A stretch of DNA of 64,000 bases from an uncultured Solirubrobacterales bacterium (GCA_963767295.1 CAVYDI010000001.1:47820-111819); one strand, 5' to 3'; positions 19,677-52,918 are shown, counted from the first letter of the stretch. Numbers and translations: made by a program. Notes: generated by a model not told the origin, from the sequence alone.

Positions 19677-21191
19677 GTGACTCTGGGGCGAGCGGTAGCC
19701 ACGGTGGGCGCGGTGGCTGCGCTGACGACCGGCGCCGCGTACGCCGGTTCAACTGCGCCGGCCGGTTCGGTCCATCAGGCATCAGGAAAAAACGGCTGCT
19801 ACACGGCGGACGGCTCGAGCGAGGCGGGGCCGGGAACATGCCACAACATCCGCGGCGGCAGTGAGTCGACCACTCTTGTGGTCAGCCCTGATGGACGCAA
19901 CGCGTACTTGGACGGCTACGGGACAAGCACACCCAAGGTTCCGCCGATACTGGCCGTCTTCCGCCGCAACGCCAAGAACGGCACGCTCAATCAACTGCCC
20001 GGCAAGAGCGGCTGTTTCTCTTCGAATGGCAAGAGCGAGGACGGTCCGAACACCTGCACCAAGGCCCGCGACCTCGACTCCGGGGACGCCACCTCAATCG
20101 CGATCTCCCGCGATGGACGTTACGTCTACGTCGCCTCGCAATACGGCAACGCCGGCGGGATCGCGATCTTCGCGCGCAACTTGAAGACCGGAAAGCTCAC
20201 CCAACTCGGCGGCAAGGCCGGCTGCGTGACGGCCATCAAATACAAGGGCTGCGCCGTCGCGCGCGAGGTTGACGACACGTCGAACGTGCACATAACGCCC
20301 GACCAGAAATACCTCTATGCCTCCAACTACGACAGCGCGCCACAAAGCGGGATCGCGATCTTCAGACGCGACGCGAAGACCGGCGCACTCCAGCAGCTCA
20401 ATGGCCCGAACGGCTGCATCACAACAAACGGCACCACAGCTCAGAGCGGCACACACAAGGTCTGCCGAGCAATGCACAATCTGAGCGCCCCTTGGGACGT
20501 CGCGACGCCGGACAACCACTTCGTCTACATCCCCGCCGCGACCTCCGGAGGTACGGGAACGAACCTCGTCCAAGCCTTCAAGCGCAACTCGGCGGGCGCG
20601 CTCGTGCCGCTAAAGGGCAAGCGCAGCTGCGTCTCTGATGACGGCACCAGCCCGGCTGGCCCATGCGTCCACGGCCGCGGACTGACCCGGCCCGAACGCG
20701 CGGTACCGTCGAAGAACGGGCGCTTCCTTTACATCAACAGCTATGGAGAGGGCACCGGCATCCAGTCGCCGGTCGCCGTTTTGAACCGCAACCCGAAGAC
20801 CGGCCTGCTCTCGCAGCGCAAAGGCCCGTCAGCTTGCATCAGCGCCGACGGCACAACCGGTGATGGTGCGAGCTGTCAGGACGGTCGCGCGCTCGACGGC
20901 GGCTACGCCGGCGTGCTCTCCCCCGATGGGCGCACGCTGTATTACGCCGAAGGCGGCGCCGACGGATTCGCCATCTTCCGGGTGTCGCCGTCCACCGGCG
21001 CCATCTCGCAGCTTGCCGGCAAGTTCGGCTGCGTGACCAAGGACGGCTCGAGCGAGGACGGCCCGGACACCTGCCAGCAAGGAAGAGCCGTCGCGGGCGC
21101 CTACCAGGTGGCGCTGGGCTCAAACGGGCGTGACGTCTACGTGGCTGGCGACGACGACAACGGCGAAGCGCTCTTCTACGCCCGCAGATGA
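19677..21191 (+). CDS. Secreted lactonase/YncE-like beta-propeller with Cys-paired loops
   Basis: Repeated SPDGR..Y / ISRDGRYVYVA blades alternating with QL.GK.GC...C loops. Confidence 0.8.
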   Translation: MTLGRAVATVGAVAALTTGAAYAGSTAPAGSVHQASGKNGCYTADGSSEAGPGTCHNIRGGSESTTLVVSPDGRNAYLDGYGTSTPKVPPILAVFRRNAKNGTLNQLPGKSGCFSSNGKSEDGPNTCTKARDLDSGDATSIAISRDGRYVYVASQYGNAGGIAIFARNLKTGKLTQLGGKAGCVTAIKYKGCAVAREVDDTSNVHITPDQKYLYASNYDSAPQSGIAIFRRDAKTGALQQLNGPNGCITTNGTTAQSGTHKVCRAMHNLSAPWDVATPDNHFVYIPAATSGGTGTNLVQAFKRNSAGALVPLKGKRSCVSDDGTSPAGPCVHGRGLTRPERAVPSKNGRFLYINSYGEGTGIQSPVAVLNRNPKTGLLSQRKGPSACISADGTTGDGASCQDGRALDGGYAGVLSPDGRTLYYAEGGADGFAIFRVSPSTGAISQLAGKFGCVTKDGSSEDGPDTCQQGRAVAGAYQVALGSNGRDVYVAGDDDNGEALFYARR

Positions 21192-22687
21192 ACAGGCACC
21201 GGGGGCGTATTGCTGCAACCTTGGGCGCGGTGACTGCGCTGGCCACTGCCGCGGGCGCATACGCCACCTCGAGCGCCCCAGCCGGCTCCCTCCACCAGGC
21301 GCCTGGCAAGAACGGCTGCTACACCGAGGACGGCCAGAACGGTTGTCATACGGTTCGCGGGGCGACGGGCGCCGACAGCCTTGCGATCAGTCCCGACGGC
21401 CGCTTCGCCTACATCGACGGGTATGGAGGCAACGGCACGAGCGCCCTGCCGGCGCTCGCCGCGCTGAAGCGCAATCCAAAAACCGGAACGCTTAGCCAGC
21501 TCCCCGGCAAGAGCGGCTGCTTCTCCCGGGATGGTGGGAGCGAGGACGGCCCGAATACTTGCACGAAGGCACGCGACCTTGGCAGCGGCGACGCCACCTC
21601 GGTCGCGATCGCGAGCGACGGACGCTTCTTGTACGTGGCTTCGCAGCTCCGCTCCGGCACGAATGTGGACATTGGCGGGGTCGCAGTCTTCGCCCGCAAC
21701 CTCAAGACTGGGAAGCTGCGCCAACTCAAGGGCACGTCGGGGTGCGTTACCGCCGTCTCATACAAGGGGTGCGCCATCGTCCGTGAGGTCGAGGAGGTCT
21801 CGAACCTCAAGTTCACGCCCGACCACAAGTACCTCTACGCCTCCGACTACAACGGGGCACCCCACAGCGGTATCGCGATCTTCAAAGTGAACCCGAAGAA
21901 CGGCATGCTGCACCAGCTCAAGGGCGTAAACGGCTGCATCTCCACAGACGGCACCACCGCGGCCAGCGGCACGACCAAAGTCTGCCGGGCCGCGGCCAAC
22001 CTCAACTCCCCGTGGGACGTGGTCACCCCGGACAACCGCTTTGCCTATGTCCCCGCCGCGGGTGCTTTCGACCTCGTGCAGGGATTTGAGCGCAACTCCC
22101 AAGGTGGCCTCGTGGCACTCAAGGGCAAGGGGGGTTGCGTTTCCGACTCCGGCTCAAGTCCGGCAGGCGCCTGCGTCAACGGCCGCGGGCTGTCTAACCC
22201 GGAGCGCGCTCTGGCCTCGCCAAACGGCCGCTACCTCTACATCGGCAGCTACGACAGCCCGTCGCCAGTGGCAGTTCTCAACCGCAATCCCAAGAACGGC
22301 ATGCTCTCGCAGCGATCGGGCACGGCCGCCTGCATCAGCCTCGATGGCACCAGCGGCGACGGCGAGACCTGCCGGAACGGGCGCGCGCTGCATGGCGAGT
22401 ACGCGGGCGGGATGGCGCCCGACGGGCGGACCTTCTATTTCCCTGAGTTCAGCTCGAACGCGCTCACGATCTTTCGCGTATCGCCGAAGACCGGCGCCTT
22501 CTTCCAACTGCCGGGTAAGTTCGGCTGCGTCACCCCGGACGGCTCGAGCGAGGAAGGTGCGGGAACGTGCGAGACGGGAAGAGTGACCCAAGGGGCCTAT
22601 CAGGTGGCGCTCGGCTCACAGGGGCGCGACGTCTACCTCTCCGCTCAACAGAGCAACGGCGAAGCGCTCTTCTACGCCCACAAATAA
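21188..22687 (+). CDS. Secreted beta-propeller, tandem paralogue of 19677..21191
   Basis: ATGA overlap with the upstream stop; collinear over the full length. Confidence 0.8.
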   Translation: MNRHRGRIAATLGAVTALATAAGAYATSSAPAGSLHQAPGKNGCYTEDGQNGCHTVRGATGADSLAISPDGRFAYIDGYGGNGTSALPALAALKRNPKTGTLSQLPGKSGCFSRDGGSEDGPNTCTKARDLGSGDATSVAIASDGRFLYVASQLRSGTNVDIGGVAVFARNLKTGKLRQLKGTSGCVTAVSYKGCAIVREVEEVSNLKFTPDHKYLYASDYNGAPHSGIAIFKVNPKNGMLHQLKGVNGCISTDGTTAASGTTKVCRAAANLNSPWDVVTPDNRFAYVPAAGAFDLVQGFERNSQGGLVALKGKGGCVSDSGSSPAGACVNGRGLSNPERALASPNGRYLYIGSYDSPSPVAVLNRNPKNGMLSQRSGTAACISLDGTSGDGETCRNGRALHGEYAGGMAPDGRTFYFPEFSSNALTIFRVSPKTGAFFQLPGKFGCVTPDGSSEEGAGTCETGRVTQGAYQVALGSQGRDVYLSAQQSNGEALFYAHK

Positions 22688-22694
22688 ATAGGAC

Positions 22695-22766
22695 CCGGGC
22701 CGATCATGATCGGCCCGGCCGGCCGGAACATGTTCCGGCCGGGGCCGGCGCACATGTGCGCCGGCC
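22695..22766. repeat. Array of three abutting perfect 24-bp palindromes (CATG-centred)
   Basis: ccgggccgatcatgatcggcccgg | ccggccggaacatgttccggccgg | ggccggcgcacatgtgcgccggcc. Confidence 0.95.
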
Positions 22767-22778
22767 AACAAAAGATGA

Positions 22779-23651
22779 TCAGGCCTTCGCCTTGGCCTTT
22801 GCCTTGCGCGCCGGCGCCTTGGCCTTGCCTGCTTTGCCGTCACGCGCGGCGGGCTTCTTCTGGTCCTCGTCGCCCTGCACGGCCGCCAGGCTCGCCTCGA
22901 GTGCGGCCATCAGGTCGGGCGCCGGCGAGGGTTCCTCGACCTCGGGCTGCACGGTGATCTCCTCGCCCGCCGCCTTGCGCTCGATCAACTCGAGTACGCG
23001 CTCGCGGTAGTCATCGTGAAACTTGGAGGGGTCGAAATCTGCCGACAGCGACTCGATCAGCTGCTCGGCCATGCGTAGCTCGCGCTCGGAGGCCTCGGCC
23101 TCCTCGACCGCATCGAGCTCGTCGAGCCTGTCTGGAGCCACGACCTCGTCGCCGAACAGCATCGTCGACAGCGTGAGCACGTCGCCCGTGGGTCGGAGCG
23201 CGCACAGCTGCTGCTTGGTGCGCAACACGATCCGGCCGATGCCCACCTTGCCCTCCTCGCGCATCGCGTCGAGCAGCAGCCGGTACGCCTTGGCGCCGCC
23301 GGTCGCGGGCGCGAGATAGTAGGAGTGGTCGAAATAGATCGGGTCGATCTCGGCAAGACTCGCGAACTCCTCGATGTCGATCGTCTTGGTCGCCTTGGGA
23401 TCGAGCGCCTCGAGCTCCTCGGATGAGATCAGGACGTAGCGGTCGGGGCTGATCTCATACCCCTTGACGATCTCGTCGTAGGGGACCTCCTCGCCGGTGG
23501 AGGGGTCGACGCGCTGCTGACGGATGCGCGTGCCTGTCTTGCTCGCGATCTGGTGAAAGCGAACGGACTTGGGCGAGGTCGCGCTGTAGAGCTTGACGGG
23601 CACATTGACCAGCCCGAAGCTGATCGCGCCTGACCATATTGCGCGGGGCAT
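22779..23651 (-). CDS. ku: Ku protein (non-homologous end joining)
   Basis: MPRAIWSGAISFGLVNVPVKLY, EIDPIYFD..YYL, DLMAALEASL and basic AK-rich tail. Confidence 0.96.
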   Translation of the reverse strand: MPRAIWSGAISFGLVNVPVKLYSATSPKSVRFHQIASKTGTRIRQQRVDPSTGEEVPYDEIVKGYEISPDRYVLISSEELEALDPKATKTIDIEEFASLAEIDPIYFDHSYYLAPATGGAKAYRLLLDAMREEGKVGIGRIVLRTKQQLCALRPTGDVLTLSTMLFGDEVVAPDRLDELDAVEEAEASERELRMAEQLIESLSADFDPSKFHDDYRERVLELIERKAAGEEITVQPEVEEPSPAPDLMAALEASLAAVQGDEDQKKPAARDGKAGKAKAPARKAKAKAKA

Positions 23652-52846: not shown

Positions 52847-52918
52847 CCGGGCCGCGCATGCGCGGCCCGGCCCGTCGGCACATGTGCCGACGGGGGCCGG
52901 CGCACATGTGCGCCGGCC
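52847..52918. repeat. Second array of three abutting perfect 24-bp palindromes
   Basis: ccgggccgcgcatgcgcggcccgg | cccgtcggcacatgtgccgacggg | ggccggcgcacatgtgcgccggcc. Confidence 0.95.

Follow-up and report, generated by a model that had tools for sequence, protein, structure and literature searches.

The three abutting palindromes at positions 22695-22766 together represent one member of a repeat family that is dispersed and lineage-specific, occurring in Solirubrobacteraceae, and the element that is repeated consists of two to six abutting 24-bp modules (three in the genome studied here) bracketed by a pair of AT-rich inverted flanks. The conserved property of the modules is the complementarity of their arms: whichever strand is considered, a module folds into a hairpin whose stem has 10 bp and whose loop is CATG. 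Here, the window is the whole stretch of 64,000 nucleotides that was analysed (positions 1-64,000, corresponding to C1:47820-111819), and G000 is the genome to which it belongs, a Solirubrobacteraceae MAG of three contigs and 3.10 Mb with 67% GC that is 91% complete.

An array of perfect palindromes between ku and a propeller gene

At 22695-22766, the sequence reads exactly as the original prediction had it, namely as three abutting, perfect, CATG-centred palindromes of 24 bp, CCGGGCCGATCATGATCGGCCCGG + CCGGCCGGAACATGTTCCGGCCGG + GGCCGGCGCACATGTGCGCCGGCC, each of which is 100% self-complementary, with 0 nt between the arms and 0 nt between the units (Table 1). The further description of the units as loop-free holds for the duplex and fails for the single strand, which by folding forms a 10-bp stem closed by a 4-nt CATG loop. 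The array was also said to lie between convergent genes, and the gene coordinates and Pfam matches agree on the propeller gene and ku as its neighbours, with AT-rich flanks on both sides. Unit A (CCGGGCCGATCATGATCGGCCCGG) has 3 copies in G000 and is the most frequent middle unit of the sister genome G011. The third unit, GGCCGGCGCACATGTGCGCCGGCC, had been proposed as an invariant unit and is instead the most frequent third unit (28 copies); because this unit C marks one end of the array, it gives the array a polarity. Folding of the whole array predicts three 10-bp stems in RNA (−66.8 kcal/mol, z −6.5, for one strand and −70.1 kcal/mol, z −5.8, for the other) and a DNA structure of −42.3 kcal/mol (z −8.7). 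The window contains a second array at a distance of 30.15 kb, which has the same unit 3 and departs from the first array in units 1 and 2 by mirrored changes only.

Table 1. Positions of the two arrays, their parts and neighbours, and an unrelated repeat (numbers without a prefix are positions in the window)
Feature	Position	Strand	Remarks
Left neighbour, 499-aa beta-propeller gene	21188..22687	+	Pfam Lactonase 7-bladed beta-propeller; stop 7 nt from array
A-side AT-rich flank acaaataaataggac	22680..22694		includes TAA stop (22685-22687) of propeller gene
Unit A CCGGGCCGATCATGATCGGCCCGG	22695..22718		perfect 24-bp palindrome; single strand, 10-bp stem with CATG loop
Unit B CCGGCCGGAACATGTTCCGGCCGG	22719..22742		perfect 24-bp palindrome; most frequent family unit in G000, 30 copies
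Unit C GGCCGGCGCACATGTGCGCCGGCC	22743..22766		perfect 24-bp palindrome; 28 copies in G000
C-side AT-rich flank aacaaaagatgatca	22767..22781		ends with the TGA stop of ku (minus strand)
Right neighbour ku, 290 aa	22779..23651	-	Ku; stop 12 nt from array; convergent with propeller gene
Second array in window	52847..52918 (C1:100666-100737)		CCGGGCCGCGCATGCGCGGCCCGG + CCCGTCGGCACATGTGCCGACGGG + GGCCGGCGCACATGTGCGCCGGCC
GTAC-bearing tandem repeats of 24-bp period	G198:C3:459736-460531; G634:C1:3131434-3131629		raised control counts; unrelated to palindrome family

A dispersed family of phased 24-bp palindromes

A search of G000 identified 206 units, 176 of them perfect, at 75 loci; 59 loci are triplets, and 50 of these 59 keep an exact 24/24 register. 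A profile search added about 12 further decayed remnants. In one natural remnant, at C2:1208873, the loop is CTTG instead of CATG. When the 8,564 CATG sites of the genome are scored for complementary pairs out of 12, the distribution peaks at 4-5 pairs, and its upper end comprises 66 sites with 9 pairs and 17 with 10, followed by 24 with 11 and 176 with 12. The numbers of perfect palindromes with half-lengths from 8 to 14 are 160, 41, 21, 17, 174, 4 and 2, respectively, the spike corresponding to a full length of 24 bp. CATG palindromes of 24 bp are far beyond chance expectation in this genome. The dispersed REP-like unit that had been proposed at the outset, and for which a genome-wide palindrome search was suggested as a check, is borne out by the 75 loci and by the presence of the family in at least four genera of one family.

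The core of the unit in G000 is G-M-R-CATG-Y-K-C, and the outer arms are variable and GC-rich. Across the 206 units there is no variation at positions 11-12 (CA/TG), and G occupies position 8 in 202 of them; position 9 has C or A, and position 10 has A or G in most cases; at the outer seven pairs every Watson-Crick type occurs, which results in 51 distinct perfect 24-mers. Units start with CCGG, CGGG or GGCC, and a GGCC...GGCC unit at one end defines the polarity of an array, 27 arrays having one orientation and 21 the other. The flanks are conserved as well: among 48 oriented arrays, the A-side flank has the consensus AAAAWTWTGWY, with G at −3 in 73%, A/T at −2 in 96% and C/T at −1 in 98%, and the RWCAWAWTTTT-like profile of the C-side flank is a weaker inverted copy of it. 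The AT content of the flanks is 0.64-0.68, compared with 0.34 in intergenic DNA, and a related flank, AACAACATCAGCTTT, occurs in genus g37. Taken together, the palindromes and the conserved inverted AT-rich flanks make up an element of about 96 bp that has dyad symmetry overall.

Complementarity of the arms

In G000, 98% of the arm pairs are Watson-Crick. Most of the 36 exceptions concern the outermost positions, and no more than 13 are of the transition type; among about 2,060 pairs there are 6 GT and TG mismatches and 7 AC and CA mismatches, that is, no excess of G.U. We further analysed G252, a genome from a second genus (2.4 of 2.88 Mb), in which there are 35 arrays of 2-6 units with 126 perfect units, 103 of them different, and only YRCATGYR is conserved at the centre. 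The 120 distinct units of G252 are 98.5% paired, compared with 55% in shuffles (0 of 500) and 32-47% when partners are slid. Covariation extends to all 10 stem pairs in these units, with changes on both sides: there are 488 double-sided changes against 135 expected, and one-sided (wobble-type) changes occur in only 5 of 1,200 cells. The majority of changes are G-C to C-G flips, for which no passage through G.U is possible. A build for hairpins or cruciforms, of which the cruciform had originally been suggested, is supported by this covariation and pairing. Near-absolute perfection without G.U intermediates makes upkeep at the DNA level the best explanation, over RNA-level selection alone.

Mirrored changes in the arms fit base pairing or copying from arm to arm, and do not fit a dimeric protein that reads half-sites. 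A tandem site for such a protein had been among the initial suggestions, and it cannot account for arms that are free to vary and nevertheless stay mirrored. In an operator array of this kind, each palindrome would be the site of a homodimer (a global regulator, or a ParB/Noc/SlmA-like or resolvase-like protein), and three dimers would sit at 24-bp phasing. The conserved palindromic core G-M-R-CATG-Y-K-C (given as 12 bp), the exact 24-bp register, the dispersal over about 75 sites and the location of some arrays directly upstream of promoters (TANNNT in 11 of 45 start-side flanks) would all be compatible with it. However, the reading of half-sites needs no mirrored outer 7-8 bp, yet 103 of the 126 perfect G252 units differ, only YRCATGYR is common to different genera, the positions relative to genes are heterogeneous, and no candidate protein was found, so that we regard operators as very improbable. 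The SOS box, parS and similar operators were rejected for misfits in spacing or sequence and for the variation of the arms.

Alternatively, the arrays might be structural sites in the DNA itself, forming cruciforms under negative supercoiling (with the help of the AT-rich flanks) or hairpins in single-stranded DNA. Their role would then be at the level of the chromosome, for example in supercoil buffering, as a landing site for type II topoisomerase or nucleoid proteins, or in the anchoring of loops or domains, and effects on transcription would be secondary. The equal perfection of both strands, the lack of enrichment of wobble pairs, the predominance of G-C to C-G flips that cannot pass through G.U, the exact two-fold symmetry that the palindromic centre gives to the duplex, and the AT-rich flanks within a genome of 67% GC are consistent with this. 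However, 10-bp stems are short for cruciforms that extrude in vivo, three abutting four-way junctions would be sterically awkward, no partner protein was identified, and template switching or bidirectional transcription would equally result in pairing on both strands. We consider a structural role of the DNA rather unlikely.

Distribution of the family

We screened genomes for the pattern CATG-N20-CATG-N20-CATG, with the reversed pattern as a control. In G000, there are 53 matches compared with 1 for the control. Three congeners have 20, 16 and 15 matches, and members of three other genera of the family have 4-38. Most of the 301 Solirubrobacteraceae genomes sampled have 0-2 matches, and none was found in about 390 genomes sampled from the rest of the Actinomycetota. 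The palindrome-array family is accordingly present in at least four genera of one family, the soil Solirubrobacteraceae. The array-rich genomes are the small ones of the family (2.6-3.7 Mb), and congeners of 5-7.5 Mb have 0-6 triple-pattern matches.

A supposed sister family with GTAC centres, which appeared through the control counts of G198 and G634, was rejected: the sequences in question are 24-bp tandem repeats that are non-palindromic and probably coding (Table 1). Near a contig start in G252 (C1:1306 and 9336), the single near-palindrome GCTGGCGGGGCATGCGCCGCCAGC occurs in two identical copies at a distance of 8 kb; these may be the ends of some other element.

The original prediction did not recognise the array as a described element, and the searches agree. 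No Rfam family reaches its gathering threshold in the window (sub-threshold matches score at most 22 bits, where 34-191 would be needed), none matches in the array region at E ≤ 10, and full-text literature searches yielded no description of the palindrome-array family, which is apparently undescribed.

Conservation of array sites and exchange of units

An exact-protein look-up of Ku gave no match, and relatives at the array site were found by homology search with Ku. An array is present at the same place after ku in JGI short-read metagenome contigs with Ku 97, 94, 90 and 87% identical, and in an NCBI MAG with Ku 89% identical. In the ku arrays of these relatives, the third unit is nearly constant, and other units are replaced by the mirrored variants CCGGTCCGCACATGTGCGGACCGG, CCGGTCCGAACATGTTCGGACCGG and CCGGCGCGAACATGTTCGCGCCGG, of which CCGGTCCGCACATGTGCGGACCGG and CCGGTCCGAACATGTTCGGACCGG are common elsewhere in G000. 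By sequence comparison, the mirrored replacement points to an exchange of units by gene conversion. Relatives with Ku at most 84% identical have gltB as the neighbour after ku, and no array.

Two array-free relatives (L065 and L059) have short direct tandem repeats of about 35 nt in the spacer after ku. In one relative with Ku 87% identical (L296:1206-1353), the ku/propeller spacer holds a longer, degenerate version with five hairpins, several of which have centres other than CATG (CAGGTG, CCGG, CGTG); this version may be real decay or an error of short-read assembly.

These occurrences dispose of an assembly artefact, which had been named as a refuting case: independent short-read contigs and the NCBI MAG carry the array after ku. 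The arrays might be suspected of being an assembly or sequencing artefact of a long-read MAG given that the source genome is a MAG and that short-read contigs often break within arrays (L287, L288, L293, L295). However, the same array recurs, identically placed, in independent JGI assemblies of several samples as well as in a further MAG, orthologous intergenic arrays with homologous flanks are found in other genomes, and the arrays are placed precisely between stop and start codons, which leaves an artefact with virtually no probability.

Genome-wide, both flanks adjoin a G000 array for at least 6 of the 20 G011 arrays and for 2 G023 arrays, where about 0.5 would be expected by chance. Orthologous arrays of G011, G023 and G000 have homologous flanks and mirrored unit differences, and at one locus (L138) the order of two units is swapped between species. 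Elsewhere, the array has decayed to a remnant (L148), is displaced by 2-5 kb (L141, L158, L160) or coincides with a rearrangement breakpoint (L136, L146). Taken together, these comparisons show that the arrays remain at their intergenic sites when species diverge and that modules are exchanged between copies.

Two of the G011 loci have further particularities. At L144 (G011:C12:113533-121584), the whole element, with its AT-rich flanks, is inverted relative to G000 C2:1274891, before a cspA-like gene. At L136 (G011:C4:111655-119706), the array is flanked by the genes of two G000 arrays, C3:282377 and C3:1389197, and G023 is collinear with G000 in this region; the locus looks like a rearrangement with arrays as breakpoints.

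Gene context and likeness to terminators

Gene context was assessed with crude gene calls of our own, based on GC3, and background shares of gene orientation were measured in G000. In G000, the distance from the array edge to a stop codon is 0-17 nt in 50 of the 68 stop-side flanks (crude gene calls), and the AT-rich flank often includes the stop codon of the neighbour. The G000 sites, 12 convergent, 35 tandem and 13 divergent by the same crude calls, match the background of 19/61/19%; divergent sites that proved real on inspection lie between citE-like and MaoC, murJ and rpsT, and hemQ-like and glycosyltransferase genes. The G252 sites, with 13 convergent, 14 tandem and 3 divergent, are enriched for gene 3' ends compared to the G000 background of 19/61/19%. 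The indifference of the G000 arrays to the orientation of neighbouring genes would favour a structural site in the DNA, whereas the bias of the G252 arrays to gene 3' ends is what an RNA element predicts. Array orientation in G000 does not switch with GC skew and follows gene direction weakly; a tie between array orientation and replication polarity was rejected, given the lack of such a switch.

In 11 of 45 start-side flanks (raw count), a TANNNT hexamer is located 6-9 nt before the start codon, for example at C2:58843, C2:92767, C2:393363 and C3:354752. This is the layout of leaderless actinobacterial promoters, and the motif suggests that leaderless promoters may be built from the AT-rich flank of the element.

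In a consensus scan, unit A followed by GTCCTATTTA (minus strand, on the ku transcript) is the top terminator-like site in 19 kb, a region in which canonical terminators are at the level of shuffled sequence (12 found vs. 10.1 expected). As in intrinsic terminators, the hairpins are stable and GC-rich, with stops 7 and 12 nt away. The minus-strand reading of the A-side flank, 3' of the last hairpin, is GTCCTATTTATTT, and this tract after unit A was called by the scan; in the family as a whole, about 7 nt separate the last stem from the start of the T-rich run, which is weaker at the unit-C end. The initial statement that ordinary terminators do not fit was too strong, in that the A-rich/T-rich inverted flanks are terminator-like and stop codons usually abut.

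The explanation that we favour, although only tentatively, is that the element is a REP/BIME-like bidirectional terminator or insulator at gene ends that lacks a RAYT, and that its perfection is kept by template switching and gene conversion. The array would be a transcribed gene-end module that reads, in either direction, as an A-rich tract followed by three strong hairpins and a T-rich tract; its effect would be to stop or insulate transcription and to cap the 3' ends of mRNAs, and between ku and the propeller gene it would serve both convergent genes. At the DNA level, correction templated by hairpins during replication (template switching on quasi-palindromes) would perfect the palindromes, and gene conversion among copies would help to keep the units perfect. 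Several observations do not sit well with a terminator or insulator: the divergent promoter regions of G000 offer nothing to terminate, the orientation classes in G000 match the background, none of the invariant CATG loop, the exact 24-nt module and the three hairpins is required of terminators, the T-rich tract begins about 7 nt past the last stem and is weaker at unit C, and over-dispersed spacing would not be predicted.

Spacing along the chromosome

The gaps between loci in G000 (n = 72) have a mean of 39.9 kb, a median of 34.7 kb, a minimum of 13.05 kb and a CV of 0.48. None of 20,000 random placements was as regular (mean CV 0.97, never below 0.66), and random placement results in a median smallest gap of 398 bp and about 16 expected gaps below 10 kb. 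The gaps begin sharply at about 18 kb, and the spacing is unchanged when the remnants are added. In G252, the CV is 0.85 and the minimum 3 kb (P = 0.2), which rules out even spacing as a trait of the family; it is real in G000. Array pairs that share at least 24 identical nt make up 39% in G000 vs. 5% in G252. The spacing may have arisen because recombination between near-identical arrays removed close pairs, because insertion follows an immunity-like rule, or because the arrays have a chromosome-level role.

A structural site in the DNA gains from the over-dispersed spacing of G000 (minimum 13 kb, CV 0.48) and loses from its absence in G252. That the arrays are cruciform or hairpin DNA devices placed at controlled intervals, as topological or loop-domain anchors or as landing sites of a type II topoisomerase or a structure-specific protein, seems improbable. 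The G000 arrays, never closer than about 13-18 kb and typically 25-45 kb apart, would then mark these intervals, and the perfect mirror symmetry would have been left by hairpins that form frequently in vivo. If this were true, the arrays would be a new class of bacterial chromosome-organising sequence. Even spacing in G000, if functional, would point to an unknown layer of chromosome organisation.

Mobility

Searches of G000 (91% complete) yielded no match to RAYT (PF01797), for which the control matched in 6 of 14 genomes, and none to OrfB_IS605; the Y2_Tnp search is uninformative, its control having matched in no genome. The only match among the hairpin-related transposase families searched is an IS110 remnant 8.7 kb from the nearest array. 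This truncated IS110-family (DEDD) transposase at C2:121573-122415 has about 125 N-terminal residues fused to unrelated sequence. Where arrays of G252 lie close together, the genes that separate them are ordinary housekeeping genes, and no transposase is among them. A linked RAYT, HUH or other transposase had been anticipated in the original prediction, and no intact candidate was found in G000. The comparison with empty sites in relatives, suggested at the same time, was equally unproductive: no target-site duplication is evident at the array flanks and no clean pair of filled and empty sites was found in relatives, G011-only arrays falling at synteny breaks and relatives with Ku at most 84% identical having gltB as the neighbour. 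Because of this different neighbour and the synteny breaks, no target duplication can be defined.

These results bear on the possibility that the arrays are a selfish or neutral repeat without host function, which would spread into AT-rich intergenic spots through a trans-acting enzyme or through recombination and gene conversion, would persist through hairpin-templated correction, and would be harmless only outside genes. Such a repeat would account for the patchy distribution among genera and among species of one genus (53, 20, 16 and 15 triple-pattern matches vs. 0-2 in most), the highest copy numbers being in small genomes, and for the homogeneous G000 arrays (39% vs. 5% in G252) in every type of intergenic region, as after a recent burst. 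The TIR-like conserved flanks, the decayed remnants, the arrays at rearrangement breakpoints (L136, L146) and the in situ inversion between species (L144 vs. C2:1274891) are also in line with it. However, there is no RAYT, OrfB_IS605 or intact IS110 transposase in G000, no transposase between the close array pairs of G252, and neither a target-site duplication nor a clean empty site; perfect palindromes are normally prone to deletion, and the retention of sites across species, together with the conservation of module length and centre across genera, points to constraint beyond survival. On balance, a repeat without host function is unlikely, although by no means far-fetched.

Implications and comparison with known systems

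Hundreds of independent 24-bp modules, the arms of which change in a mirrored manner only and the sites of which can be traced between species, constitute an unusually clean data set on the evolution of palindromes, with which the long-debated 'perfecting' of inverted repeats by template switching becomes directly testable. The family extends REP-like elements to a deep uncultured actinobacterial lineage without RAYT and raises the question of how they spread and persist. As terminators or insulators, the reading that we tentatively prefer, the arrays would be needed for the annotation of transcription units in the soil-abundant Solirubrobacteraceae and could serve as compact bidirectional parts for high-GC hosts. 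In practical terms, the arrays break short-read assemblies of the Solirubrobacteraceae genomes that carry them.

REP elements, BIMEs and REPINs of Proteobacteria are short (20-40 bp), GC-rich palindromic units that occur in many copies, extragenically and in clusters (PMC3733652; PMC3116915). Roles in termination, mRNA stability and supercoiling have been proposed for REPs, which are also substrates of recombination (PMC3733652; PMC3116915), and REP units have an unpaired GTAG or CGTC tag at one end (PMC3733652). REPs are associated with a RAYT (Y1 HUH transposase) gene and are found mainly downstream of coding regions, where the neighbouring genes are convergent or point the same way. The arrays, with 206 units of 24 bp at 75 intergenic loci in G000, have in common with REPs that they are short extragenic palindromes in high copy number, clustered, often located directly after stops, and potentially able to form RNA hairpins. 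Unlike REPs, they are perfect rather than imperfect palindromes in an exact 24-bp register without linker, their arms are free and only the centre is conserved, G000 has no RAYT, they are not depleted between divergent genes in G000, and they are restricted to one actinobacterial family. There is no GTAG or CGTC tag, the array flank being G-W-Y / R-W-C with C at −4 in only 4%. Also, in contrast to BIMEs, in which REP units alternate in orientation with defined linker motifs between them, the units abut (24/24 nt in 50 of 59 triplets) and each is its own reverse complement, so that there is no orientation or linker.

Clusters of hairpins have been described as terminators (PMC8355165); they share with the arrays at least two adjacent stable hairpins within about 80 nt of the stop and A-/T-rich sides, and are common in GC-rich genomes with few canonical terminators (PMC8355165). 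Ordinary terminators, in contrast, do not form a repeat family; they lack a fixed module length, an invariant self-complementary loop and exchange of units between loci, tolerate G.U pairs and mismatches, and are absent from divergent promoter regions. Template switching has been described as keeping short inverted repeats perfect over evolution, the cases described being isolated repeats in Proteobacteria (PMC5941160); mirrored arm changes and correction at the DNA level without selection on each pair are common to these repeats and the arrays, whereas modularity, phasing, dispersal and a conserved centre and flanks distinguish the arrays.

MITEs resemble the arrays in being small, non-coding, dispersed, intergenic, bounded by inverted terminal sequences and patchily distributed among related genomes. 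They differ in that no target-site duplication or cognate transposase was found for the arrays, the body of which is a stack of independent palindromes that varies in sequence between copies, and in that many copies of the arrays are stably orthologous. CRISPRs have short, partly palindromic units with a fixed period as well, compared with which the arrays form about 75 tiny loci instead of a few long ones and have no adjacent cas genes; that CRISPR does not fit, as had been stated from the beginning, is confirmed by the lack of spacers and by the differences between units within an array. Relative to the literature, two properties are unusual for REP-like elements: free arms that evolve in strict mirror fashion around a fixed CATG, and over-dispersed spacing in G000.
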